From an uncultured bacterium (lineage in GTDB: Bacteria; Zixibacteria; MSB-5A5; JAABVY01; JAHJOQ01): a stretch of DNA of 64,000 bases. A model generated the notes under the pieces. The model was not told the DNA's origin and ran no database searches. It saw only the letters and a program-made list of their open reading frames with translations. Made by a program: the position numbers and the translations under genes. The DNA lies in the NCBI GenBank assembly GCA_965369655.1, contig CBDUQR010000002.1, positions 33,857 through 97,856 of the forward strand, written 5' to 3'. The stretch's first letter is position 1. Each line of letters starts with the position of its first letter. Positions 15,013-34,527 of the stretch are shown here, in pieces.

Positions 15013-15522
15013 GTATCTCGATATGTTCAAGCTAATCCTTTCATCAGTACAATGTTACGTCAATACTTGTATCGCACGATACCGCCGAATACTTGAATAG
15101 TCAATTAGAAAATCTTGACGATAATGTCGCGATGAGGGGTAGGTGGCTGCGACTACGTTTCTGCACTTAGTTTGAGCAGGTCACGTAACTCATTGTCCTG
15201 AAGTACGCTCATGGAAATAGTTGATCCAAGTTTTCTCTTGACACATTGCGTGTACCTGTTATATTGAGCATGTTGATTATGGTCCGCTCTCGGGGGATGG
15301 CGGATAGCGGCTGACTGACGGCCGCAGTTGTTCGTAATTACTCGCTTCGTCTGTACCCTTCGTCGAGTTGCATGTGCTTGAGGCTCGAAAGTTTTGTTCA
15401 AGAATACAATGTATGTAGGATTCCAAATTGCTGATAAGGAGGTGAAACAGCACAGGAGTTTATGTGGGGTTTGGTCTGAGGACCACACTTATTTTTTAAG
15501 ACTTGACAACAGGAGGATTTCA

Positions 15523-18500
15523 ATGAAATCTGCGAAATTCTTAGCAATCTTTGTGGTACTTGCGGTTCTCTTTGCCGTTCCTGCGTTCGCGCAGGATACT
15601 GGCGTTCTGGACACCGTCCGCTGGGTACCGGAGAGTACGACGTGGACGATCGATGCCGCAGGAGATTCGCTCTTCTCGATCGAGGTCTTTGGCTGGACGG
15701 ACCAGAGTATTACAGCTCTTTCACTCGGTTTCAAGATCCCGACGAGCTCCGGTGGCGGCACCGGTCATGATGATTCGCTGATAGTGGTTGATTCATTTAA
15801 TTTCACTATGTCGACGGGCTTTCCAGTACCATGGGCCTGGAGCGCGGTGGATTCAGCGCGCTTCGCAGATGATTTTCTACGGCACAGCTTGTACAATGGC
15901 ATCCTGCTCGGACGGATCATGCCGACCTTCCCTGCGAATACATCATCTAAGATTGGTGATCTGTTCATCAATATCCCTGATCCCACCTTGCTGCCATGTG
16001 AGTTCGACATAGCTATCGACTCGGTCTTTTTCCCGCCTGCTGGGGCTTTCAAGTTCTCTCCCTCTGGCGGCTCAGGCTACGCGCCTGAGTATGTAGGTGC
16101 GACAATTCATGTGGTGAACAATATCTGTATTCCTGATGAGGAACCGACAATTTACCTCAATCCGACAAGCTTTACATTTAACGCTGTCGAGAATGGTTCC
16201 AATCCGGTCGCGCAATCACTCAGTATCATTAATACAGGTTCTGGAACACTGAACTGGACAGCATCAGTTGATCAGACATGGTTGACTCTTGCCGCATACA
16301 GTGGTACAGGAGATGGTGCAGTAAATGTATTAGCTAATAGAGGTAGTTTGACTGCTGGCACTTACAATGGTACGGTGACAGTGTCTGATCCTGCGGCGAC
16401 GAATAATCCGCAGACAGCATCAGTGACATTTATCATTGCACCGGCTCCACCTGAGATCGTGCTCGATACGACGAGCTTTACGTTCGATGCAATTGAAGGT
16501 GGACCGAATCCGGATGATGATACTCTCTGGATCTCAAATGGCGGTGGTGGAACGCTCGACTGGTCGGTTGGCGATGATGCAACCTGGCTGACCACTACTC
16601 CCGTTGCGGGTACCGGAGACGGATACACCGTCCTGAGCGTGAATGTCTCAGGCCAGCAAGTCGGCACTCACGTTGCGACTGTTTTTGTCACCGATCCTGC
16701 CGCAAGCAATACTCCTCAGACGGTTGATGTTACACTGAATATTGTATGCGACCCATCTGAGATAGAGGTGACTCCGTTGAGTTTCACATTCGATGCTGTC
16801 GAAGGTGGACCGAATCCACCGGCACAGAATATGTTAATTGGAAGTAGTGGTTCTTGCGACGTCAATTGGACTGCAACGATTATAGCTGGATGGCTTTCAC
16901 TTTCTGAATATTCCGGAACTGCGGCGTCGAGTGTCGATATTTCTGTGGACATCTTGGGATTAGACGCCGGTACTTATGAAGATACTATCGTGATTTCACA
17001 CGATGGGATCAATGAAAGTCCCGTTAAAGTTCCAGTGACGCTGTATGTTAATTGCATTCCGGCAGAGTTGGAGACTTCACCATCGAGCTTCGCTTTTGAT
17101 GCTCAGGAGGATGGCGCAAATCCGACCCCGCAGATCCTGCACATTACAAATGGTGGGACTTGTGAACTATATTGGGGTGCAAGTAATTCTCAGCCCTGGC
17201 TCACGCTTTCTGATTACTCTGGAACTGGCCCCATTGATATCGATGTCATGGTTGATATAACCAGCATGACTGCTGGCGAGTACCACGATACGATTGTCGT
17301 ATTCGATGATGGCAGTCAAATTGACACCATACCTGTTGTGCTCACAATCGGTACAGAGCCGCTGTTGATGGTTGCGCCGAGCGAGCTCAATTTCACCGCT
17401 CCGGATGGCGGACCGAATCCTGCTTCTCAGGATGTTGATATTACATCGACCGACTCGCCTGATACGGAGCTTGAGTGGGTCGTTATTGAGCCTGGCAAGC
17501 CTATCGCCTGGTTGAGTTATGATCCGGCTTTGGGCACCACCCCTTCGGTTATGACTGTCAGTGTAAATATGGATGGGCTGTCTGCGGGTGTTTACAACGA
17601 CAGCATAATGCTTACGAAGAATGTTCCGGACAAGGACGATATCGGCGATACGGTGACTGTCTATGCTGAATTGACGGTTACTGGTGTTCCGGAAATCGAT
17701 CTGATTCCGAATTACTTCTTCTTCACCTGGGAAGAGGGTTCACCGATTGTTCCTGATGACCAGGATATGAATATCACCAACACAGGCTCCGGTACCCTGA
17801 ACTGGACTCTCTATGATACCGAGCTGATTGGCTGGCTTGATCCGTCGGCGTTTTCAGGTACCGCGCCATCGGTGGTGACACTTTCGATAGACACTGGTCC
17901 ATCACTTACAGCCGGCAACATATATGTTGACACGATTGTAGTTGAATGTGCTGATGCGATCAATCCGCTCGAGATTGCGATTGTCGAGCTTGAAGTGACC
18001 GAACCGCCGGTGCTTGACGACGACACGGTCTGGGTTGGAAATACAAGCGGACTTCCCGGCGAGCAGGTTATCGTTCCTGTGACTTTCGCCAACAGTGTAT
18101 ATCTGTCAGGCATCTCACTGCCGCTTATCTTTGACGATATGCTGGCGAAAATCGACAATGGTATTACCTGTGACTCGGTCTCGTTCATCGGGTCGAGGGT
18201 CGACTACATTGGCGCGAAGCCAGTCACGATTGACAATATCAACAAGACTGTACTGGCAGGTGTGATAGTTATTAGCGAGCCGCTAATTCCGGCAGGCAAC
18301 GGCCTGATGGCGAACCTGTATTTCTCGATCGCTCCGGGCGCCGCACCGGGAATCGTTCCGATAGACTCGACGTTTATCCTTCCTGCAAACGAACTGATGT
18401 TCGCTGACAGCCTTGGTGGCGCGATCTATCCGGAGTTCTTCTATGGAACAATTGAGATTCTCGAACCACCTTCGACGGCTTGCCTCGAGGTCAGCGATGG

Positions 18501-20562
18501 CTTCTTTGATTTCCAGGCGATTGTAAGCGGTCCGAATCCTTACGATCAGTACCTTGACATCATCAACTGTGGTGATGTGGAACTCAACTGGGATGCCTGG
18601 ACTCATGTAGGTACGTGGCTGAGCATCGATCCAACAACGGGAGTGGATGATGCAACGGTGACTCTCTCAGTCGATATTACAGGTCTTCCGGAAGGTGATT
18701 ACATCGATTCAATTACTGTTGATGCCGGTGATGCCGACAATTCACCGCAGTACGTACATGTTGACTTGCACGTTGGCCCGCCGTTGTCACAGTACATCTC
18801 AGGCGTCGTGCAGGATCCTGCCGACGTAGTGATTGACGGCGCGACTGTCGAGCTCTGGGATGTGTTCCCCACTGGTACCATCCTCGAGACGGCAACTTCA
18901 GCAGGCGATGGTTCGTTCATGTTCACTGGTTACACAGGTTATTATGTGGTCCGTGCGTACAAGAACGGTTACTATCAGAATTTCATGGATGTGACCGCGC
19001 CAGACGAGGCTGTTGTCATAGTCCTGACGCCGACTGGCACGCCAACTCCTACCAACGAGTGGGTGGATCTCTACTGTGACATGGCCATGTTCGAGGATTA
19101 TCCGATCCTCCCGGGTGATGTCGTAGAAGCTTACGATCCGGACGGTATTCTCTGCGGTCAGTATTTCGTCACCGAGATTGGCAAGTACGGCTTCATGCCG
19201 GTCTACCGCGACGACGACTTCACACCTGGTATCGACGAAGGTTGTGATCCGGGTGACGCGATCACGGTGATGCTCAACGGCTTCGATATGACTCCGTACC
19301 TCGGTGCTCCGTTATTCTGGACCCAGAATGGTGACAGGATCGAAGCATGCTTCGATGGTTACATCATCGACGAGATTTGCATGGATCTCTGCGAGGGTTG
19401 GAACCTGATCTCGTGGAATGTCGATACGGAAGTTGACGACATCGACGTCGTTATGCTTCCGATCATGGATTACATTGACGTCATGCTTGGATTCGAACAG
19501 GGTGCGTTGACGTTCGATCCCGATTATCCTGAGTTCTCTACGCTCGAGTTTGTCGACCACTACCACGGTTACTGGGTCAAGATGACTCAGGCTGCCGAGT
19601 TCTGCGTATCAGGTTTGCCGGTCGATCCATCGACGCCAATCTCTCTCGAAGAAGGCTGGAACCTTGCGTCCTATCTGCCTGATGGCGTTATGGCCACAGA
19701 GGAAGCTCTGGTTTCGATTCTTGACGTGCTGATCGTCGCTCTCGGATTCAACTGCGAAGAGGGCGGTATGGTGTACGATCCTGAGAATCCTGGCATGTCT
19801 GACCTCGAATTCCTTGGCCCAGGATTTGGATACTGGTACAAGGTCACTCAGGATGTCATGCTGACCTATCCGAGCGATGTTCCGTGGGCTGCGATGTTCT
19901 CCGGTGAGCCGGACAAGACATCGGCCAAGCTTGCCGTGCTGAAAGATGTTACTCCTACGACTCAGTGGGTGGATATCTTCGGCGGCAATGTCACGATTGA
20001 CGGTCGTGCGCTTGCAACCGGTTCGATCGTCGAGGCTGTCGATGAACACGGCGCCGTTTGTGGCGCGTTCGAGATCAAAGCCTCCGGCAGACTCGGTTTC
20101 ATGGCGGTCTATGGCGATGACATGACAACTTCAGATACGTACGAAGGTCCGACTACGGGCGGTACGTTTTACCTCGTGGTGGACGGCATCGCGACAGAGG
20201 AGACATTCGTGTGGACCGGGCACGGCGAGCGTGTCGAGATCGGCGCCCTGAGCTCTCTCGGTGGCGGCGGCGTAACGCTTCCGGATGCTTACGTACTGGA
20301 GCAGAACTATCCGAACCCGTTCAATCCGAAGACCAGCATCTCGTTCAGCGTCGGTAACGATGCTTATGTGAATCTGGTCGTATACAACCTTCTTGGCGAA
20401 GTTGTGAATGTTCTGGTCGATGAATTCAGAGCCGCCGGCGACTACACGGTCGACTGGAACGGTGACGACCTGAGCGGACGCACAGTCTCTTCCGGCGTCT
20501 ACTTCTACAAGCTGACGTCCGGCGACTATACTGAGACCAGGAAGATGATGTTGATGAAGTAA
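15523..20562 (+). CDS. Giant T9SS-sorted scaffoldin-like surface protein (1679 aa). It contains 7 BACON-type Ig repeats, a cohesin-like module, a CarboxypepD_reg-like domain, two novel ~77-aa W/CG repeats, two EGWNL repeats and a C-terminal T9SS sorting domain.
   Basis: There is an AGGAGGA RBS before ATG 15523 and a signal peptide (MKSAKFLAIFVVLAVLFAVPAFA). Seven repeats fit the BACON pattern SFTF(D/N)A.EGGPNP…LNW…WL…SGTGDG…AGTY…VTV…NPQT. The cohesin-like segment is VWVGNTSGLPGEQVIVPVTFANSVYLSGISLPLIFDD…NLYFSIAPGAAPGIVPID. The C-terminal YPNPFNPKTSISF…GVYFYKL…RKMMLMK is a T9SS C-terminal domain. Confidence 0.8.
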   Translation: MKSAKFLAIFVVLAVLFAVPAFAQDTGVLDTVRWVPESTTWTIDAAGDSLFSIEVFGWTDQSITALSLGFKIPTSSGGGTGHDDSLIVVDSFNFTMSTGFPVPWAWSAVDSARFADDFLRHSLYNGILLGRIMPTFPANTSSKIGDLFINIPDPTLLPCEFDIAIDSVFFPPAGAFKFSPSGGSGYAPEYVGATIHVVNNICIPDEEPTIYLNPTSFTFNAVENGSNPVAQSLSIINTGSGTLNWTASVDQTWLTLAAYSGTGDGAVNVLANRGSLTAGTYNGTVTVSDPAATNNPQTASVTFIIAPAPPEIVLDTTSFTFDAIEGGPNPDDDTLWISNGGGGTLDWSVGDDATWLTTTPVAGTGDGYTVLSVNVSGQQVGTHVATVFVTDPAASNTPQTVDVTLNIVCDPSEIEVTPLSFTFDAVEGGPNPPAQNMLIGSSGSCDVNWTATIIAGWLSLSEYSGTAASSVDISVDILGLDAGTYEDTIVISHDGINESPVKVPVTLYVNCIPAELETSPSSFAFDAQEDGANPTPQILHITNGGTCELYWGASNSQPWLTLSDYSGTGPIDIDVMVDITSMTAGEYHDTIVVFDDGSQIDTIPVVLTIGTEPLLMVAPSELNFTAPDGGPNPASQDVDITSTDSPDTELEWVVIEPGKPIAWLSYDPALGTTPSVMTVSVNMDGLSAGVYNDSIMLTKNVPDKDDIGDTVTVYAELTVTGVPEIDLIPNYFFFTWEEGSPIVPDDQDMNITNTGSGTLNWTLYDTELIGWLDPSAFSGTAPSVVTLSIDTGPSLTAGNIYVDTIVVECADAINPLEIAIVELEVTEPPVLDDDTVWVGNTSGLPGEQVIVPVTFANSVYLSGISLPLIFDDMLAKIDNGITCDSVSFIGSRVDYIGAKPVTIDNINKTVLAGVIVISEPLIPAGNGLMANLYFSIAPGAAPGIVPIDSTFILPANELMFADSLGGAIYPEFFYGTIEILEPPSTACLEVSDGFFDFQAIVSGPNPYDQYLDIINCGDVELNWDAWTHVGTWLSIDPTTGVDDATVTLSVDITGLPEGDYIDSITVDAGDADNSPQYVHVDLHVGPPLSQYISGVVQDPADVVIDGATVELWDVFPTGTILETATSAGDGSFMFTGYTGYYVVRAYKNGYYQNFMDVTAPDEAVVIVLTPTGTPTPTNEWVDLYCDMAMFEDYPILPGDVVEAYDPDGILCGQYFVTEIGKYGFMPVYRDDDFTPGIDEGCDPGDAITVMLNGFDMTPYLGAPLFWTQNGDRIEACFDGYIIDEICMDLCEGWNLISWNVDTEVDDIDVVMLPIMDYIDVMLGFEQGALTFDPDYPEFSTLEFVDHYHGYWVKMTQAAEFCVSGLPVDPSTPISLEEGWNLASYLPDGVMATEEALVSILDVLIVALGFNCEEGGMVYDPENPGMSDLEFLGPGFGYWYKVTQDVMLTYPSDVPWAAMFSGEPDKTSAKLAVLKDVTPTTQWVDIFGGNVTIDGRALATGSIVEAVDEHGAVCGAFEIKASGRLGFMAVYGDDMTTSDTYEGPTTGGTFYLVVDGIATEETFVWTGHGERVEIGALSSLGGGGVTLPDAYVLEQNYPNPFNPKTSISFSVGNDAYVNLVVYNLLGEVVNVLVDEFRAAGDYTVDWNGDDLSGRTVSSGVYFYKLTSGDYTETRKMMLMK

Positions 20563-20574
20563 CAGCCCTTTAAC

Positions 20575-20608
20575 GGCAGGGCGGTTAGAACCCGCCCTGC
20601 CCTTTCTC
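20575..20608 (+). terminator. Rho-independent terminator
   Basis: A perfect 10-bp stem (GGCAGGGCGG / CCGCCCTGCC) has a 6-nt loop and is followed by CTTTCTC. Confidence 0.6.
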
Positions 20609-20619
20609 GGAGGTGACTC

Positions 20620-21669
20620 TTGAAGAAATTCAAACGTAATATCGCGAGGCTGTTACCTCTCTTGTTGTTGTCAGTCCTTATGGCGTCATCCGCAAGCGCT
20701 CAGGTAATTCCGACAGACCAGTGGGTGCATTTCTGGAGCCCGAGTTCGACCTTAAATGGACAGCCGCTGCCGATTGGAGCGATTGTTGACACATATGATC
20801 CGGACGGCGTACATTGCGGTCGGTTCATCGTCCATACTACCGGTCAGTACGGTTACCTTTCAGTTTACCATGATGATAGTTACACGCCGGGTGTCGATGA
20901 GGGTGCGCTTTCCGGCGATACGATCACAATCATGGTAAATGGCGTACTGGCAGATGTTCTTGGTCCTGACGATCCCGAGTGGACGTTCAACTTCGCATTT
21001 CTGAACATCGACCTGGGCGTTCTGATCAATCTTGCGCTCGAGTTGACTACTCCACTTGACGACGTGGGAGCGCCAAACGGTTTCGTCGATTACACGTACA
21101 AGGTGAAGAATACCGGTGAGGGGATCGATTTCTTCAACCTCGAAGCTGTTTCATCCGGTGGATGGACAGTCGAAATTCTCGGCGGCGACGCCACAGGCTA
21201 CCTGAATCCGGGGGAGGAGACAGATGTAGTCGTGCGAGTCCATGTACCAGGCACTGCCCAGGATGGCGATACCGATGATCTGACTCTGACCGCCAGTTCA
21301 GCTATGGATGCCACCGTATCTGAGAGCGGTACAGTGACGACCTCGGTGATCGAAAGCGCCGCAGGGGATCCCTATGATCCTCTCATTCCGGGCGTGTTTC
21401 ATCTTCGCCAGAACTTCCCGAATCCGTTTAATCCTGTGACGACAATCGAGTTCTCGATCGAAAAGGCGATGGACGTCGAGTTGATCGTTTACAACGTTAT
21501 CGGGCAGGAGGTCAAAACGCTGGCCAACCGTCATCTGGAGATAGGCATGCATCAGTTCGAATGGGATGCCACAGATGAGAGTGGACAGAAAGTTGCAAGC
21601 GGAATCTACTTCTATCGACTTATCACTGATGAGTACGCGAGAACGCGCAAAATGATGCTGATGAAATAA
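20620..21669 (+). CDS. T9SS C-terminal-domain secreted protein (349 aa) sharing the W/CG repeat with the scaffoldin
   Basis: The start is TTG with a GGAGGTG RBS. It has a signal peptide and one copy of the W/CG domain (DQWVHFWSP…PDGVHCGRFIV…YGYLSVYHDD…TIMVNGV). Its T9SS C-terminal domain (FPNPFNPVTTIEFS…GIYFYRL…RKMMLMK) is near-identical in pattern to that of the scaffoldin. Confidence 0.75.
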   Translation: MKKFKRNIARLLPLLLLSVLMASSASAQVIPTDQWVHFWSPSSTLNGQPLPIGAIVDTYDPDGVHCGRFIVHTTGQYGYLSVYHDDSYTPGVDEGALSGDTITIMVNGVLADVLGPDDPEWTFNFAFLNIDLGVLINLALELTTPLDDVGAPNGFVDYTYKVKNTGEGIDFFNLEAVSSGGWTVEILGGDATGYLNPGEETDVVVRVHVPGTAQDGDTDDLTLTASSAMDATVSESGTVTTSVIESAAGDPYDPLIPGVFHLRQNFPNPFNPVTTIEFSIEKAMDVELIVYNVIGQEVKTLANRHLEIGMHQFEWDATDESGQKVASGIYFYRLITDEYARTRKMMLMK

Positions 21670-21692: not shown

Positions 21693-21727
21693 CGGAGCCC
21701 TTCCCATGAGGAGGGGCTCATTTTTTT
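21693..21727 (+). terminator. Probable Rho-independent terminator
   Basis: An imperfect GC-rich hairpin (GGAGCCCTTCCC..GGAGGGGCTC) is followed by ATTTTTTTC. Confidence 0.45.
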
Positions 21728-22131
21728 CAGGTTGTGTCTTCTCCGCAATCCGGCATCGAGATGAGCATAATTGTCGACAGAAACTTTCGGGAGTCCGCGA
21801 AAAATCTGACCGCACCCGAGCTGACAATCGGATTCAATGATCTCAAGCTCATTGGATTGGGGCGTTCATCATGTCCGAATACTATCGGAGCCTGTACAGC
21901 CTGTATGTCGTTCGGGTTCATTTCTTCCAGTTCAACACGCCAGAGCATTCGCGGCATCGAGCAGTGAACCATACGCTGTCGGATGTTTTCTTCTGCCGGC
22001 GTGTCACTGTCCGAATCGCAGACTGAGTCACTCTGGGCGAGAATGAGTCCGTGATCGGTGGAATTGGGACTCCCCCAATCGGGAGAATCACAGCAGTTGT
22101 ACTTGGCGAATATGTGTTCGTGCATGTCCAT
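21727..22131 (-). CDS. Hypothetical protein (weak call)
   Basis: It is the only ORF over 100 aa in a 690-nt gap. The product is Cys/Asp-rich with no recognisable domain and no clear RBS. Confidence 0.25.
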   Translation of the reverse strand: MDMHEHIFAKYNCCDSPDWGSPNSTDHGLILAQSDSVCDSDSDTPAEENIRQRMVHCSMPRMLWRVELEEMNPNDIQAVQAPIVFGHDERPNPMSLRSLNPIVSSGAVRFFADSRKFLSTIMLISMPDCGEDTT

Positions 22132-22355: not shown

Positions 22356-22760
22356 ATGGATGAAGCTGCAACGCAGCAACAGGACATGGTCGTATCGCCG
22401 TTTGCGACCGAGTTTGAGTTTGAACTTCCCAAGGGATACATCGACGACTATGGAAACGTGCATCGAGTCGGCAGAATGAGACTTGCGAACGCGAAGGACG
22501 AGATAGCGCCGCTTTCTGATCCTTTAGTGAGGGAGAACAAAGCGTATCTGGTGATATTGATTCTGTCGAGAGTGATAACGAGTCTTGGTAAAATCGAAAT
22601 CGTCACGCCTGAGACAGTCGAACGATTGTTCTCGGCTGACATTTCATACCTTCAGGACTTTTATCAGAAGATCAATACCGATGGCGATGCGGTTGTCCCG
22701 GCGAAATGTCCGTCGTGCGGGCATGCGTTTGAGGTGGAGTATAAATGCCTGGGAAAATGA
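22356..22760 (+). CDS. Phage tail assembly chaperone-like protein (gpG/gpE-type), 134 aa
   Basis: The core (GNVHRVGRMRLANAKDEIAPLSDPLVRENKAYLVILILSRVITSLGKIEIVTPETVERLFSADISYLQDFYQKIN) has the pattern of tail assembly chaperones, and the tail is a C-terminal Zn-ribbon-like CPSCGH. The ORF ends at a G GGA AAA TGA slippery site. Confidence 0.55.
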   Translation: MDEAATQQQDMVVSPFATEFEFELPKGYIDDYGNVHRVGRMRLANAKDEIAPLSDPLVRENKAYLVILILSRVITSLGKIEIVTPETVERLFSADISYLQDFYQKINTDGDAVVPAKCPSCGHAFEVEYKCLGK

Positions 22761-27331: not shown

Positions 27332-30300
27332 TTAGCAGCAGGCAGCCGGATCGGGCGCTGGTCCTCCACCGAAGATGTAGTTGATCAGATACACTACATC
27401 ATCGATGTCGATACCGCCCAAACCGTTGGCATCACCGCAACAGATATGATCCACAGGCTCTGGTCCGCCACCGAAGATATAGTTGATCAGATACACCACA
27501 TCATCGATGTCGACACCACCAGAACCGTTAGCATCGCCCGAAACGCAATCGGACACAGGCTCACAACCCGGACAGTCAATGTTAGCACAGATCCAGGTCT
27601 TACCCTTATCGATGAGATTTTGCAGATCTGAAAGGCCTGTAAGGCTCGAGGCCTTCACCTTGCAGTATACGACGCACTCCTCTGCTGCAAGTGTGAGATC
27701 CTGAGCGATGACGTACACCGAATTGAGGTCCTCTACTGAATCCGAGGCGAGAAATCCGGTATGTGTAGCCAACAGATTGCCTATTTCGGCAGGTACATAA
27801 CCGGAGTTATCATACACCCAGGTGTCGTTTTCGAGGACGATGGCACCAACGATATCACCACAGAAGGATGCGCCGCCATAGTAGTCCTCGTAAGGCGAAC
27901 TGCCGGCGGGACCATACTGGTAGACCATCTGTCTGTCTTCATCGACTCCGGACTGGTTGTCACTGCCGTCTTCGCCGTCCGGTATATCCCAGTCGATACC
28001 TTCACCGAGATGGATGGTGATAGCGGCATCGGTGTTGTTGCAGACTTCAACGCGCTCGATCAGTACACAGACATCCGGGTGCTTCGGCACGTACCACTCA
28101 ATCACACCGGTGATGGCTGAGTCTGGAGTAGCCCACTCGCCGTGAGCGTAGTCGTAGTTGACATCATCCACAAGTATCAGCGAGTCTAAAGCGACGAAGC
28201 TGACTTTGCTGTTGGAGCCGTCGAACATCGAGAAGAATGTCTGAGAGACGTCGTCAGCATATGTCACGATGATACCCTCGTCGTACATTGGCGCGAACTC
28301 TTCGAGGAACCAGAACATATTGCCGAGATCACTGCGTTGAGCAACACCGGCTCTCGGGACGTTCCAGACGCCGATAGACCAGCAAGCGGTCGACAGAATT
28401 TCGTATTCCGGCGGGAAGTACTTACAGGCGACCAGAAGGTTGACAGGAATGTCGACTTGATCGGAACCTTCAGTACTGGTCAGACTGACACTCACGTTAC
28501 CGATTTCGGCGGTTTCGTTGGCCACCGGGCCAACGTCCACGGTGATAGTGGCTACGGTATTGATACCAGCCGTCACCGTACCGGTACCGCCGGTGATGCT
28601 CATCCAGCTTTCAGTTTCGCTTACAATGTAGCCGATCTCGACGTTACCGGTGTTGACGATAACGACATCAAACGACGTCGTAGTCGGCATCGTGCAGTCG
28701 GTACCGCTCGTGGGAGAGATTATCACAGACTGGTCCTCAGGAGCGACCGAATAGCTGAAAATGGCTTCCGGAGTGAAGCATGGGTACGTGGCGTAGAGAA
28801 CCTCGTTCTCGGTTTCTTCTCCCTCATCGTGAACGAACGAGCCAGCGTCATGGTCGCTGACGTAGAAGAGGTGCAGTACACCAGACGAGTATTTGGCCAT
28901 CGATCCGAAGTTCTCGTTGTGGCATGCACCGGCCACACAGCCGTCGGAGTATGTATTGGTCAGGTTGACATAAGTGCCGAGCTTGACCGGGACGCCGCTG
29001 CCAGCGGTCGTCAGTGTGTCGAATTCGTCCAGGGTGCCGTCGGGACCCCATGTGATGCCGCCATCGCTCGATGCAGTCAGGCAGAATTCGCCGTTTGCAT
29101 AACCATTTGCGGAGCAATCACCGTTGTTGTCACCACGGGGCCAGGTTCCAAAACGAGTAAACGAAACGTACATGTTGCCGTCGCATTCGGAGATGTTGAT
29201 TCTGGAAATGGCGCCGAGACCACCACCGATACCGCCGCTGCAGAATCCAGTCGGGGAGGTAGCGTCGAGAACGCGCGATATGACGTTGCTGGACTGATCC
29301 CAGTGCCACATATTGCCGCGGAACAGCGGCTGGCAAGGATCATCTTCTCTGAAATCAGGAGTCAGCCAAATGATGTGAAGGTCCCCGTCAGAGTCGTAGA
29401 CGGCTGATATTTCCGATTGAGCCTTGTGCACAAAATTGATGGGGTCAAGTGTTCCTCCCTCGGTGTAGTCAGTGATGTTGACTTCCGAACCCCAGGTGGC
29501 GCCGCCGTCAGTCGATTCCATGTAGACTATGTCGTGTTGTACCCACTGGAAGTTATTGAGATCGCCGGCAGGGTTGCCATCGCCATCACAACTGTTTCTC
29601 GGGTCACCCTGCTCGTAGAAAGGTTTGCACCAGATGAGGGCCACGTCGTCCGATGTCGGAGCGGGATCAGAGCGAACAGTAGCATTGACCGTATGGGAAG
29701 CATCGATGTAGAGGCCGAGCGTGTCGGTAGAGGTACCGGGGCACTCAGCGAGATCACCGTCAATATACCGATAGTAGATGATCGATTGTATCGACTCGTC
29801 AGGAAGAGCCACCGGCGGCGACTCGGTTGAGACTATGTGCAGTATCTCTTCGCCGGTTGTCAGTTTCTGGAACTCACCTACCGGCCAAATGTATGCATCA
29901 CCTTCATTTGTGCCGGACATTTCTCCCTGGCAGTTCGGTGGACCCGGCGCCCAGCGACTCACGTCAGGAAGGGCTTGAGGAAAGTAGCCGGACGGTGGCA
30001 TCATATCTATGCCCGACCTTGTGGAATAGAGCGCCGAACCCGGGCCTGCATGCCAGAATCCGACCGCAACACCGGCGTCGGTGACGTCAATAGTGGTATA
30101 TCCGCCATTGTTGGCAGATGCTGAATTCCCGGTGTGGCCCCACACCCATGCGCTGGGAGTAGTGATTTTGCGAGAGTTGTAATATATTCTCCGAAAACCG
30201 CTATGATCAGTCGGATGGCCTCTCATCCAGAGAAAGTGAACATATTCCAAACCGCTACCCTGGAAGTTCGGCGTGTAAGCGATCTGCCTCCCCATCGTGC

Positions 30301-30541
30301 CGTTTTTTTGATATTCGTAGTAGGTCACGCCGACTGTGTCGCCGATTGGATTCTGACGCGAAGCAGCGCCTGAAGGGCCGAGCCTCGGGCCGCTCGGTGT
30401 GTCATCACCGGCGATGCTCTTGTAAGGTTTCATCTTGTAGGACTGGCTGGTGGCGTCATCGACATTGGCGATGGCCGAACCCGCAAAGATCAAGAGTGTG
30501 ATCATCGCGATAGCCAGTACAAAATTCTTGCTGGAAATCAT
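27332..30541 (-). CDS. Secreted BNR-repeat (sialidase-like beta-propeller) protein with a C-terminal tandem dockerin-type repeat; paralogue A, 1069 aa
   Basis: It has a signal peptide (MISSKNFVLAIAMITLLIFAGSAIA). BNR motifs are present (STDGGATWGS, SSDGGITWGPDG). The C-terminus is GDANGSGGVDIDDVVYLINYIFGGGPEP…GDANGLGGIDIDDVVYLINYIFGGGPAP, two canonical dockerin Ca-binding segments. It is about 80% identical to 30915-34154 over the C-terminal third. Confidence 0.8.
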   Translation of the reverse strand: MISSKNFVLAIAMITLLIFAGSAIANVDDATSQSYKMKPYKSIAGDDTPSGPRLGPSGAASRQNPIGDTVGVTYYEYQKNGTMGRQIAYTPNFQGSGLEYVHFLWMRGHPTDHSGFRRIYYNSRKITTPSAWVWGHTGNSASANNGGYTTIDVTDAGVAVGFWHAGPGSALYSTRSGIDMMPPSGYFPQALPDVSRWAPGPPNCQGEMSGTNEGDAYIWPVGEFQKLTTGEEILHIVSTESPPVALPDESIQSIIYYRYIDGDLAECPGTSTDTLGLYIDASHTVNATVRSDPAPTSDDVALIWCKPFYEQGDPRNSCDGDGNPAGDLNNFQWVQHDIVYMESTDGGATWGSEVNITDYTEGGTLDPINFVHKAQSEISAVYDSDGDLHIIWLTPDFREDDPCQPLFRGNMWHWDQSSNVISRVLDATSPTGFCSGGIGGGLGAISRINISECDGNMYVSFTRFGTWPRGDNNGDCSANGYANGEFCLTASSDGGITWGPDGTLDEFDTLTTAGSGVPVKLGTYVNLTNTYSDGCVAGACHNENFGSMAKYSSGVLHLFYVSDHDAGSFVHDEGEETENEVLYATYPCFTPEAIFSYSVAPEDQSVIISPTSGTDCTMPTTTSFDVVIVNTGNVEIGYIVSETESWMSITGGTGTVTAGINTVATITVDVGPVANETAEIGNVSVSLTSTEGSDQVDIPVNLLVACKYFPPEYEILSTACWSIGVWNVPRAGVAQRSDLGNMFWFLEEFAPMYDEGIIVTYADDVSQTFFSMFDGSNSKVSFVALDSLILVDDVNYDYAHGEWATPDSAITGVIEWYVPKHPDVCVLIERVEVCNNTDAAITIHLGEGIDWDIPDGEDGSDNQSGVDEDRQMVYQYGPAGSSPYEDYYGGASFCGDIVGAIVLENDTWVYDNSGYVPAEIGNLLATHTGFLASDSVEDLNSVYVIAQDLTLAAEECVVYCKVKASSLTGLSDLQNLIDKGKTWICANIDCPGCEPVSDCVSGDANGSGGVDIDDVVYLINYIFGGGPEPVDHICCGDANGLGGIDIDDVVYLINYIFGGGPAPDPAACC

Positions 30542-30914: not shown

Positions 30915-33900
30915 CTAACAGATATCAACGGGCGGAGGTCCTCCACCGAAGATGTAGTTAATCAGGTAGACTACGTCATCGATGTCGACGCCACCAGAAC
31001 CATTTGCGTCGCCGCAGCAATTATCCTGCACAGGCGGAGGTCCGCCACCGAAGATGTAGTTAATCAGATAGACTACGTCATCGATGTCGACACCGCCACT
31101 GCCGTTTGCGTCACCAGGCACGCAGTCGGGGCCACTGCTAACACAGCCGGGACAGTCGATTTCCGGTGTGTCGGCGATGAATTCCTTGCCCTTATCGATG
31201 AGATTCTGCAGATCCAAAAGGCTTGTAAGGCTCGAGGCCTTCACCTTGCAGAACGTGGTGCAGGCCTGTGCATCGAGGGTAAGATTCTGAGCGATGACGT
31301 ACACCGAATTGAGGTCCTCGGCTGGGTCCGGATTTGGGGCGACAAATCCGGTATGTGTAGCCAGCAGATTACCTATGTCGGCAGGTATGTAACCGGAGTT
31401 CGGATACACCCAGACATCGTTTTCGAGGACGATGGTACCGACGATGTCAACGCAGAAGGATGCACCACCGTGGTAGTCCTCGTAAGGCGAACTGCCAGTG
31501 GGACCATGCTGGTAGACCATCTGTCTGTCGGTATCGACTCCGCAATTGTTGTCAGATCCATCATCTCCATCCGGGAAGTCCCAGTCGATACCTTCACCGA
31601 GATGGATGGTGATAGCAGCATCAGAGTTGTTGCAGACTACGACGCGCTCGATCAGCACACAGTACACCGGGTGCTTCGGCGTGTACCAGTCGATAGTGCC
31701 GGTGATGACAGAGTCCGGAGTGGCCCACAGGCCATTGGCCTGTTCATAGGTGGAATGGTCTGTAACAGTCAATGGTCCCATGGCTATGAAGCTGGCATCA
31801 CTGTCAGAGCCGTCGAACATCGAGAAGAATGTCTGAGAGACATCCTCAGCGTATGTCAAGATGAGACCCTCGTCATACATCGGAGCAACATCCTCGACAA
31901 ACCACCACATGTTGCCCTCGTCATTTCTCTGAGCGAGTCCGGCTCTCGGAACGTTCCAGACGCCGACTGACCAGCAGTGTGTCGAGATCAGGGCATATTC
32001 GGGCACATAGTACAGGCACTCGACATGCGCCGTGACATCAACCACAATTCCCGATGCACTGCCAGCGGAGCTGGTCAGGTCGATTGTTACCGTCCCAGGG
32101 TATTCGCCCTCGGCCCCGATCGGACCAACTGTCATGACGACATCAGCCGTTGGATTGATGCCGGCAGTGATTGTACCACTACCGGAAGCAGGATTCAACC
32201 ATGACTGGTCGGATGTGAACGTATAGTTGATCGGAACGTTTCCTGCGTTCGTGATCGTAATAGTGAAGTCGTCGGTGTATTCGATAGTACAGTCGGGTAC
32301 GCCATTCGGTGCGATCGGCACGAACGCGCTTGATGGATCAACTCTGTAATCGAACGTACCTTCCGGCTCGAAGCACGGATATGTCATGTACATATATGCG
32401 TTATTTGTGTATTCACCTTCCGCATCCACAACGACGGCTGCGCCGGGATGGTTGTCGTCAATGTACGCGATATGTACGACGTCGGTCGAGTACTTGGCCA
32501 TGCTTGACCAGTGTTCGCTGTGGCAATCGCCAGCCACGCAATCGTCAGTGCGAGTGTTGGTCACGTTGACTGCCGTGCCAGTTTTCACTGCGGTACCTGT
32601 TCCTCCGGTCGTGAGGTAGTCGTATGGAGGAGCGGCAGCGTCCGGACCCCACGTGATACCACCGTCGCTGGAACCTGTCAGGAAGATGTCACCGTTGAGA
32701 AACATCAGATCCGAGTAGTCTCCACCAACACTGTCATGAATAACCATGGCAGGGTCCATTGTTGTGTCAGGATGAGCGCCGAAACGGGTGAACGAAACAT
32801 AGAGCCTCTCGTCACACTCGGAGATATTCGGCTTGCTGGTCATTATGTTCCACACACCGGTGTTCGAGAAAGTACCACCGGGTCCTCTGAAGAGGAAGGG
32901 CATCGTGGCGTCGTAGACCGGGGTGATTTCCTGGTTGAAATCATCCCAATGCCACATCATGGTGGTATAGTAGCTTCCTTCACACGCACCGGCAGCGGGC
33001 CATACCGGAGTATTCCAGACAATGTGCAGTGTGCCGAGATGGTCATACAGCGCAGTCACATCTGTATACGCCATGTACTTGATCTCACTGATCGCGAGAG
33101 TGCCGCCGTCTGAGTAATTGGTGATGTTGGTCGGTGTCGCATCCCAGGTCACGCCGCCATCATTGGATTCGAAGTAAGCGACGTCGTGCTGCCACTGTGT
33201 GTACTCGCAATCATTATTGGGATGGTTAGGATCAGGATACATATCCTTTAGATACACGATGGCGACCTTATCCGAACCCGGGTCGGATCGGACTACCGGG
33301 GTGATGTTCTGGTCCTCGGTCATCCAGCGACCGAGAGTATCCGTAGATGTACCCGTGCACTCGTCCGTGGTATCGTTCACAATACGGTAATAGATGAAAG
33401 ACTGTATCGTGGCTGCCGGGGGTATAGGATCCCCACCCGGGTTCTCGGTGGATATGACGTGATAGACGTCATTTCCGTCGACATTGTCATACTCTATGAC
33501 CGGCCAGAGGTATTCGCTTTCCAACTCATAACCATCCTCACCTTCGCCCTCGCAGTTTGGCGGAGCCGGTTGCTGAAGCTTGGAGAACGGGGTGTTCGGC
33601 GGCATTAGGTCCTTGCCAGCATATGTGAAGTAAAAACCGGCGAGGCCCTCATGCCAGGAGGCGATTGCGGCGCCTTCGCTATTGACGTCGATTGTCGTAT
33701 ATCCGCCATTAGCGCCGGAGAATGATGTGCCGGCGTTATCATCGCCGTGCCTGTGAATCCATGCCTGCGGGGCACTCAACTTTCTTGCGTTGTAACGGAT
33801 ATACCTTGTCGCGCCAGGGGCGTTCCTCCACATCCAGACAAAGTGAATATATGGATGCCCATTTAGATCTGGGGTGTAAGCAATCTGTCTGCCCATTGAG

Positions 33901-34154
33901 CCGTTGTGCTGGAAGTCGTAGTATGTCAAACCTGCGGTATCACCGGGAGGCTGGGGGACAGGGCCGAAGCGTGACGGGCCGAAACGCGGCACGTCAGCGC
34001 CGATAAGTTCATCGGATCCGCCAGTTACAGCCTGAGGGGTCAATTGGCTCTCTGGACGGACGTTACTGATTTCACTTTCGATTGCCATCGCAGGTGCGGC
34101 AAGCATAAGCAGGATCGCCACCGCAAGGCAAAAGACTTTTGAATTTTCTGTCAT
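30915..34154 (-). CDS. Secreted BNR-repeat beta-propeller protein with a C-terminal tandem dockerin-type repeat; paralogue B, 1079 aa
   Basis: The start is set at MTENSKVF, with a GGAGAGG RBS. It has a signal peptide and BNR motifs (SNDGGVTWDA, SSDGGITWGPDA). The C-terminus is GDANGSGGVDIDDVVYLINYIFGGGPPP repeated twice. Confidence 0.8.
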   Translation of the reverse strand: MTENSKVFCLAVAILLMLAAPAMAIESEISNVRPESQLTPQAVTGGSDELIGADVPRFGPSRFGPVPQPPGDTAGLTYYDFQHNGSMGRQIAYTPDLNGHPYIHFVWMWRNAPGATRYIRYNARKLSAPQAWIHRHGDDNAGTSFSGANGGYTTIDVNSEGAAIASWHEGLAGFYFTYAGKDLMPPNTPFSKLQQPAPPNCEGEGEDGYELESEYLWPVIEYDNVDGNDVYHVISTENPGGDPIPPAATIQSFIYYRIVNDTTDECTGTSTDTLGRWMTEDQNITPVVRSDPGSDKVAIVYLKDMYPDPNHPNNDCEYTQWQHDVAYFESNDGGVTWDATPTNITNYSDGGTLAISEIKYMAYTDVTALYDHLGTLHIVWNTPVWPAAGACEGSYYTTMMWHWDDFNQEITPVYDATMPFLFRGPGGTFSNTGVWNIMTSKPNISECDERLYVSFTRFGAHPDTTMDPAMVIHDSVGGDYSDLMFLNGDIFLTGSSDGGITWGPDAAAPPYDYLTTGGTGTAVKTGTAVNVTNTRTDDCVAGDCHSEHWSSMAKYSTDVVHIAYIDDNHPGAAVVVDAEGEYTNNAYMYMTYPCFEPEGTFDYRVDPSSAFVPIAPNGVPDCTIEYTDDFTITITNAGNVPINYTFTSDQSWLNPASGSGTITAGINPTADVVMTVGPIGAEGEYPGTVTIDLTSSAGSASGIVVDVTAHVECLYYVPEYALISTHCWSVGVWNVPRAGLAQRNDEGNMWWFVEDVAPMYDEGLILTYAEDVSQTFFSMFDGSDSDASFIAMGPLTVTDHSTYEQANGLWATPDSVITGTIDWYTPKHPVYCVLIERVVVCNNSDAAITIHLGEGIDWDFPDGDDGSDNNCGVDTDRQMVYQHGPTGSSPYEDYHGGASFCVDIVGTIVLENDVWVYPNSGYIPADIGNLLATHTGFVAPNPDPAEDLNSVYVIAQNLTLDAQACTTFCKVKASSLTSLLDLQNLIDKGKEFIADTPEIDCPGCVSSGPDCVPGDANGSGGVDIDDVVYLINYIFGGGPPPVQDNCCGDANGSGGVDIDDVVYLINYIFGGGPPPVDIC

Positions 34155-34527
34155 TGTTCTACCTCTCCTCAAGGTTTCATCACTGGTGTTGCGCGTGATG
34201 TTGGTTCAAAGTAAGAGAAAGCCTCTAACATAAGTTGCTGTTTCAAATTCGTTAGAAGCTAAGTCGAAGTACCGGCATGCGTCCTCCTATTATGTTTTGT
34301 GTTCCGGGTCAATTGTAGTATTCAACAATACTATTTAAAGAAGAAGCTCTGCTCATGTTTAGATTAATAGACACGGCCATGAAAGTCAAGGCAAAAAACA
34401 CAATTGTTTGCCCAAAAAAAACGTGACGGAAGCTTTCGATGGCGTTTTGGGACTGACTTCCAGGACCGATATCTGGCCGGATGAACCGGCGCAATAATTG
34501 CGAAAGTACGCCGTGCAGAAGATATTG

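Follow-up and report, generated by a model that had tools for sequence, protein, structure and literature searches.

We describe here a new, unnamed family of extracellular domains, about 103 amino acids in length and of a known fold class, that was recognised in a 64,000-nucleotide stretch of DNA (the window; positions 33,857 to 97,856 of contig CBDUQR010000002.1, assembly GCA_965369655.1) from an uncultured zixibacterium. The repeated domain, labelled X, occurs in the products of two adjacent open reading frames (ORFs), genes A and B, both on the + strand: protein A carries copies X1 and X2, and protein B carries a single copy, XB. The family is specific to proteins of the Fibrobacteres–Chlorobi–Bacteroidetes (FCB) group that are secreted through the T9SS (type IX secretion system) and presumably displayed at the cell surface. 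All coordinates given below are positions in the window.

Extent, signature and fold of the X domain

The preliminary description of this locus quoted three similar stretches of protein sequence, and in-frame translation reproduces all three exactly, in the two adjacent ORFs. BLASTP comparison of the copies in pairs returns identities of 32–45% with E values of 1e-18 to 1e-27, far beyond chance. The assignment of both host proteins to the T9SS type is likewise borne out, as the T9SS type A sorting domain model TIGR04183 matches protein A at 37.3 bits and protein B at 30.9 bits, against a curated cutoff of 23. A hidden Markov model (HMM) built from the three copies and run against all reading frames of the window identified no fourth copy, the next best match having an E value above 4.

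The size first given for the repeat, 77 amino acids, proved too small. The alignment of X1 with X2 spans 100 residues and reaches a conserved W-T-x-N-G-D-x-x-E motif, relatives match the X profile from position 1 to about position 103, and tandem copies in relatives abut with a spacing of about 104 residues (at residues 28–132 and 136–240 of relative P0016, for example), all of which indicates a unit of about 103 residues. With this extent, BLASTP and HMM matches place X1 at residues 1176–1280 of protein A (19048..19362, + strand), X2 at residues 1478–1578 of the same protein (19954..20256, +) and XB at residues 31–135 of protein B (20710..21024, +), where it starts three residues past the predicted signal-peptide cleavage site.

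A word-indexed protein search with the three-copy profile gave no match. When 1.84 billion cluster representatives were searched exhaustively with HMMER, 1,824 proteins matched at E ≤ 1e-3; 1,025 of them had E ≤ 1e-10 and 211 had E ≤ 1e-30. As many as six copies occur in one protein, and X accounts for no fewer than 1,800 clusters at 50% identity. One genome from each species was also scanned with a 10-sequence subtype alignment, a query that skews the sampled loci to X1-like copies, and 178 stretches were confirmed, almost exclusively in metagenome-assembled genomes (MAGs) of Zixibacteria and Ignavibacteria/Ignavibacteriales. X is also found in a few KSB1, Marinimicrobia, Balneolales and Bacteroidota, and there are several loci per genome. 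In public records the host proteins go under the names 'T9SS type A sorting domain-containing protein', 'PKD repeat protein' or 'hypothetical protein', and our search of the literature found no paper tying Zixibacteria to T9SS or describing such a domain.

The motifs first noticed in the three copies (W5, G33, C36, G37, G45, Y53, D55/D56 and N77-G78) turn out to be a true signature of the family across 330 instances. The best conserved positions are G37 (99%), Y53 and D/E70 (95% each), G69 (94%), G45 (93%), G65 (92%) and G23 (91%), followed by W91 (89%), D56 (88%), G33 (87%), D55 (86%), G48 (85%), W5 (81%), E64 (80%), T59 (76%), D30 and D63 (75% each) and C36 (74%), with N77-G78 present in 66–74%.

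The view that X cannot be placed in a known family also stands, since Pfam, NCBIfam and PDB sequence and profile searches gave no confident match. In Pfam, the isolated copies had no match at E ≤ 10 other than Cadherin_4, at 0.047 on one copy; NCBIfam had no match to the copies; and the PDB sequences, searched with one copy and with a 65-member profile, yielded antibody light chains alone, at E ≥ 0.06. When 65 diverse members were searched singly against Pfam, none reached a gathering score. Big_6 (PF17936) appeared weakly in nine of the 65, with a best E value of 1.3e-4 and always below its gathering score, and the window copies did not match it at all. CarboxypepD_reg (PF13620) did not match the three copies at E ≤ 10, nor was it among the top families of the 65 members at E ≤ 1. 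The preliminary description had pointed out that a confident match to a named domain, such as a PKD, CARDB or lectin variant, would lessen the novelty of the repeat. No such family was found for the isolated copies or the 65 members, carbohydrate-binding module (CBM) and lectin families gave no sequence or profile match to X, and the PKD matches seen in X-bearing relatives fall in other parts of those proteins.

A profile comparison with the 64 CarboxypepD_reg-like domains that neighbour X in relatives gave an hhalign probability of 42.5% over 35 of about 101 columns, against 0.4–2.6% for controls. This fits distant common ancestry of X and the CarboxypepD_reg-like domains but not membership of one family. 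Two other relationships were rejected. Comparison of X with the T9SS sorting domain and with the G module (introduced below) gave hhalign probabilities of 2.6% and 0.8%, respectively. A CnaB-type isopeptide domain (PF05738) was discarded because X has no conserved lysine: Lys reaches at most 15% in any column, and a Lys at positions 3–12 is seen in only 21 of 330 instances.

AlphaFold2 modelling of X1 with a 65-sequence alignment produced an all-beta structure with seven main strands, with a predicted local distance difference test score (pLDDT) of 95.1 and a predicted template modelling score (pTM) of 0.86. Foldseek comparison of this model with the PDB found no match at E ≤ 1e-3. The best match was the C-terminal domain of the PapC usher (E 4.5e-3, TM-score 0.44–0.54), followed by CnaB2, SdrD, UafA, Bap and a carboxypeptidase D domain; the CBM20 fold did not outscore transthyretin, CnaB or PapC. 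On this model, X belongs to the seven-stranded transthyretin/prealbumin-like beta-sandwiches and has no close solved relative.

A conserved tail cassette and a gene pair

Around X lies a larger conserved cassette, together with a gene pair, neither of which was visible to the preliminary description. Gene A (15523..20562, +), whose ORF is open from 15394 in the ORF list, encodes 1679 amino acids from the ATG at MKSAKFL. Its product consists of a signal peptide (approximately residues 1–23, with cleavage between AFA and Q), a variable head with BACON_2 repeats and a conserved C-terminal cassette; Pfam matches on the protein are BACON_2 (7e-36), Por_Secre_tail (6.7e-8) and CarboxypepD_reg (4.4e-6).

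The conserved tail, about 570 residues long, has the order CarboxypepD_reg-X1-G-G-X2-T9SS sorting domain. The CarboxypepD_reg-like domain that opens it (residues 1092–1158; 18796..18996, +) scores 27.4 bits against PF13620, under the 32.3-bit cutoff, and in relatives a domain of this kind directly precedes X1 in 64 of 64 instances. X1 is followed by two 'GWNLxS...GYW' modules identified by local HMM, G1 (residues 1284–1367; 19372..19623, +) and G2 (residues 1368–1452; 19624..19878, +), which have no Pfam match and are mixed alpha/beta in the cassette model. The linker between G2 and X2 (19879..19953, +) is predicted to be disordered (residues 281–298 of the cassette model, pLDDT below 50), and the cassette ends with the T9SS type A C-terminal sorting domain (CTD; residues 1596–1679; 20308..20559, +), which is recognised by PF18962 (33.2 bits, cutoff 27) and FlgD_ig as well as by TIGR04183. 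AlphaFold2 modelling of the whole cassette gave a pLDDT of 88.6 and a pTM of 0.72, with the linker before X2 as its single disordered segment.

Local HMMs for X, the G module and the CTD were run on 152 proteins; the 150 listed matches were ranked by whole-protein score, which favours multi-copy proteins. The same layout as in protein A, with a variable N-terminal region followed by X-G-G-X-CTD, is present in 79 of the 152, and the X-G-G-X block in about 95. There are 207 G modules in 103 of these proteins, and the block from X1 to X2 is 394–408 residues long in at least 60 loci. The sorting domains that partner X are FlgD_ig and Por_Secre_tail. The heads vary widely in kind and for the most part resemble adhesins (PKD, Big_9, cadherin-like, He_PIG, HYDIN-like Ig, BACON_2 and MAM), and enzymatic partners are rare, with two FGE-sulfatase and four InhA-like domains among 41 proteins. 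Some relatives (P0004, P0008 and P0002) have, in place of the X-G-G-X cassette, N-terminal arrays in which X alternates with a spacer of about 110 residues, giving a period of about 208–215 residues.

Gene B (20620..21669, +) starts with TTG, preceded by a GGAGGTGA ribosome-binding site, and encodes 349 amino acids: a signal peptide (residues 1–27, with cleavage between ASA and Q) followed by X, an Ig-like domain and a T9SS sorting domain. The middle domain (21025..21408, +) is CARDB/NEW3-like by weak matches, all under cutoff (FixG_C 1.1e-3, NPCBM_assoc 2e-3, choice_anch_T 5.6e-4). The sorting domain (21409..21666, +), detected by Pfam and TIGR04183, has 46% identity to that of protein A; it scores 39.6 bits with FlgD_ig and 26.7 bits with PF18962, just under the cutoff. 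The signal peptides, read by eye from the sequence, are MKSAKFLAIFVVLAVLFAVPAFA in A and MKKFKRNIARLLPLLLLSVLMASSASA in B, each followed by Q. A glutamine thus follows the predicted cleavage site in A (AFA/QD), in B (ASA/QV) and in most relatives that begin with X ('AQV.PTNEWV'), an arrangement that recalls the 'Q-rule' of N-terminal pyroglutamate in Bacteroidetes.

Across several FCB-group phyla, a big cassette gene is followed by a small gene on the same strand in 27 of 53 evaluable loci. The paired small genes encode proteins of about 340–470 residues with an X-...-CTD layout and lie at gaps of −1 to 81 nt. In the other 26 loci no small partner follows, even though the sequence continues for 1.3 kb or more downstream, and in 12 further loci the contig ends too soon for this to be judged. 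In the window, a promoter-like site precedes gene A (15238..15265, +; TTGACA-16-TATATT with an extended TG, 11/12 in a consensus scan and identified by pattern match alone), and a terminator-like hairpin of 10 pairs, seven of them GC, with a T-run is found directly past the stop codon of B (21695..21729, hairpin 21695–21719, +). The 57-nt spacer between the genes contains a perfect, GC-rich 10-bp hairpin without a T-run, read directly from the sequence (20575..20601, +; arms GGCAGGGCGG...CCGCCCTGCC). Taken together with the separate ribosome-binding site of B, these features fit co-transcription of the two genes. Possible roles of the spacer hairpin are control of the ratio of A to B expression and stabilisation of the mRNA.

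The relationship between the three copies was examined in 28 big/small pairs, those of the 27 loci and that of the window. For X1, the most similar copy was an X1 from another locus in 27 of 28 cases; for X2 it was another X2 in 27 of 28 cases, and for XB another XB in 24 of 28. X1 and XB share on average 47.4% identity when they come from one locus and 45.6% when they come from different ones. Recent local duplication was rejected as the source of the three copies, as sharing a locus does not make copies more alike and the copies group by position. These comparisons show the copies to be old, position-specific paralogues that are not interchangeable, and the recurrence of X in both proteins reflects an old, conserved architecture. 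The positions also differ in character: N-terminal copies such as XB begin 2–4 residues after the signal peptide ('...AQV.PTNEWV'), and X2 is a divergent subtype, placed ahead of the sorting domain, that often lacks the D-P-x-G and D-E-G-A-x-P-G-D motifs.

A proposed stalk role and its rivals

Most of the conserved acidic positions of X are found in the turn that joins strand B to strand C or in the long loop from strand D to strand E; this loop is 11–12 residues in length, fixed in size and confidently modelled. Five positions, D30, D55, T59, D63 and E64, tend to be retained or lost as a set (r 0.43–0.74), with the full set present in 209 of 330 instances; D32, N77 and D96 vary independently of them. 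In the window, X1 and XB have the full acidic set and X2 lacks D63 and D70. We infer from this pattern that the five positions probably form a single cation-binding site.

Two cysteines also covary. Cys10 and Cys101 occur together in 66 of 66 instances, against 13.8 expected, and the pair is confined to X1 (65 of 96 X1 instances, and no other position); X2 of the window lacks it. In the X1 model the two residues map to the first and the last strand, where they would form a disulfide. Besides this pair and Cys36, X1 of the window has a fourth cysteine at position 66 (DEGCDPGD), seen also in a few close relatives (P0126 and P0034). Cys66 might pair with Cys36.

The reading we favour, with about as much doubt as confidence, gives X a structural role, as one module of a stalk, rigid and probably stabilised by metal, in the cell-proximal part of T9SS-anchored surface proteins. 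Once the protein has been exported by the T9SS and its sorting domain removed, the cassette would be the part nearest the outer membrane, serving as a rigid stalk or pedestal that keeps the variable head at a distance from the cell. X would provide stiffness through its conserved acidic loop site (D30/D55/T59/D63/E64), probably with a bound cation, and in X1 the putative disulfide would clamp the first strand to the last. X2 would act as a spacer ahead of the sorting domain, in the manner of the immunoglobulin superfamily (IgSF) domain in gingipains. The preliminary description had proposed a shared binding function on the basis of the recurrence of X in both proteins; a structural stalk module accords no less well with the fold and context of the domain.

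Several points weigh against a stalk. A pure spacer role leaves the small X-bearing gene beside half of the big genes unexplained, and a pTM of 0.72 for the cassette only suggests a fixed arrangement of its domains. The covariation statistics are confounded by shared ancestry, the X2 subtype having lost several residues as a group. Finally, conservation is concentrated in loops (Gly, Asp/Glu) and extends beyond the core, and a binding site would look alike.

This last point, and the exposure of X at the N-terminus of some proteins, favours the strongest of the alternatives, in which X is a ligand-binding module, for example a Ca2+-dependent carbohydrate-binding one, that anchors the protein to a glycan of the cell envelope or the environment through its acidic loop and aromatic residues. 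We consider this unlikely, if worth keeping in mind. The searches described above returned no CBM or lectin match at the sequence or profile level, and the CBM20 fold did not score better than others. Enzymatic partners are rare, and the fixed place of X beside the sorting domain in a constant tail suits a scaffold over substrate targeting. Moreover, X2 largely lacks the acidic site and yet is equally conserved in position.

A second alternative takes the gene pair as its starting point and makes X a protein–protein docking module, with the N-terminal X of protein B binding to the X-G-G-X cassette of protein A, B being an anchor or adaptor and A an adhesin. The pair is conserved, co-oriented and nearly abutting across several phyla, as described above; in the window a promoter-like site is found before A and a strong terminator-like site solely after B, which has its own ribosome-binding site; and XB copies group among themselves as orthologues (24 of 28), which implies selection on that copy. 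Transthyretin-like sandwiches often associate by their edge strands, which also counts for docking. However, 26 of the 53 big genes have no partner, the similar X1–XB identities within and between loci are uninformative on interaction, and adjacent paralogous genes for surface proteins are common without physical interaction between their products. Docking by X is distinctly improbable in our judgement. A broader proposal, and something of a long shot, is that the cassette and the small X-Ig-sorting-domain partner are the two components of a surface-display platform that has so far gone unrecognised in uncultured FCB phyla. The partner would be a dedicated anchor or adaptor making X–X or X–G contacts, and interchangeable adhesin heads would be mounted on a common pedestal, much as polymorphic heads are on a constant secretion or anchoring tail.

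Least probable of all is that X is simply a divergent CarboxypepD_reg or Big_6/CnaB-type Ig member with no separate status: the fold class is the same, the hhalign probability of 42% against the CarboxypepD_reg-like neighbours is above controls and Big_6 is seen below threshold in nine of 65 members, but no member reaches a Pfam gathering score, the hhalign alignment covers only 35 of about 101 columns, X is some 25–35 residues longer than CarboxypepD_reg (an 82-position profile) and has its own invariant signature, the lack of a conserved Lys excludes a CnaB-type isopeptide, and in 64 of 64 cassettes CarboxypepD_reg and X are separate, adjoining units.

Neighbouring genes and known systems

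The closest locus to that in the window, from a Zixibacteria MAG (L001), is collinear with it at 75% nucleotide identity over about 5 kb, and the flanking genes of the window are also common to a second, syntenic Zixibacteria locus (L003). Just 3' of the A–B pair is an ORF of 134 amino acids (22356–22760, +) with a C-terminal CPSCGH that resembles a zinc ribbon. It has no Pfam match, and its region is kept in L003 at about 70% nucleotide identity. Elsewhere in the window, two large neighbouring proteins (27332–30541, − and 30915–34172, −) combine Dockerin_1 with BACON_2, and protein A itself has a weak cohesin-like stretch (approximately 18028–18369, +; Pfam Cohesin E 0.022, under cutoff). This stretch and the neighbouring dockerins could be a case of cohesin–dockerin pairing in a zixibacterium.

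Nothing known about T9SS or about beta-sandwich modules is overturned by the results described here, and their value lies mainly in annotation and in filling a gap in the domain catalogue. X and the 'GWNL...GYW' modules together account for some 400 blank residues in each of many large surface proteins of uncultured Zixibacteria, Ignavibacteria, KSB1 and Marinimicrobia. Naming X, G and the constant tail would improve the annotation of many proteins now recorded as hypothetical or as T9SS sorting domain-containing, and the constant tail offers a simple marker for finding variable heads that are probably substrate- or partner-binding. Recognising this tail would also provide a testable hypothesis on how T9SS cargo is presented outside the well-studied Bacteroidota.

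Among known domains, CarboxypepD_reg (PF13620, transthyretin clan) shares with X a transthyretin-like seven-strand sandwich. X differs from it in its greater length, in the 11–12-residue acidic loop between strands beta-D and beta-E and in its own W/CG/VY-DD/DEG/NG signature, so that the two are distinct neighbours rather than variants. The likeness to the C-terminal or plug-type beta-sandwich of the PapC usher is a fold-level match alone: identity is 10–15%, and the PapC domain is a periplasmic part of an outer-membrane usher.

In how it works, X may come closest to the SdrD_B (PF17210) and Cna_B (PF05738) stalk domains of Gram-positive adhesins. The putative disulfide of X1, from first strand to last, would occupy the topological position of the CnaB isopeptide bond. 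In contrast to these domains, X has no sequence or profile match to the two families and no conserved Lys, and its Ca2+ binding is presumed; its hosts use a T9SS sorting domain in place of LPXTG and sortase A, and the taxonomic range is different.

A positional parallel to X2 is provided by the IgSF domain of the gingipains RgpB and Kgp and of PPAD, likewise a beta-sandwich that sits immediately upstream of the sorting domain and is connected to it by a short linker. The RgpB IgSF domain has been proposed to be a spacer or insulator that influences processing of the sorting domain (PMC4804311). The Kgp IgSF domain (4rbm) is only weakly matched by X in Foldseek (E 0.09, TM-score 0.32) and is unrelated in sequence. 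Unlike the gingipain domain, X is also found far from the sorting domain, as X1, as XB and in the N-terminal arrays, and whatever its role, this is therefore not limited to that position.

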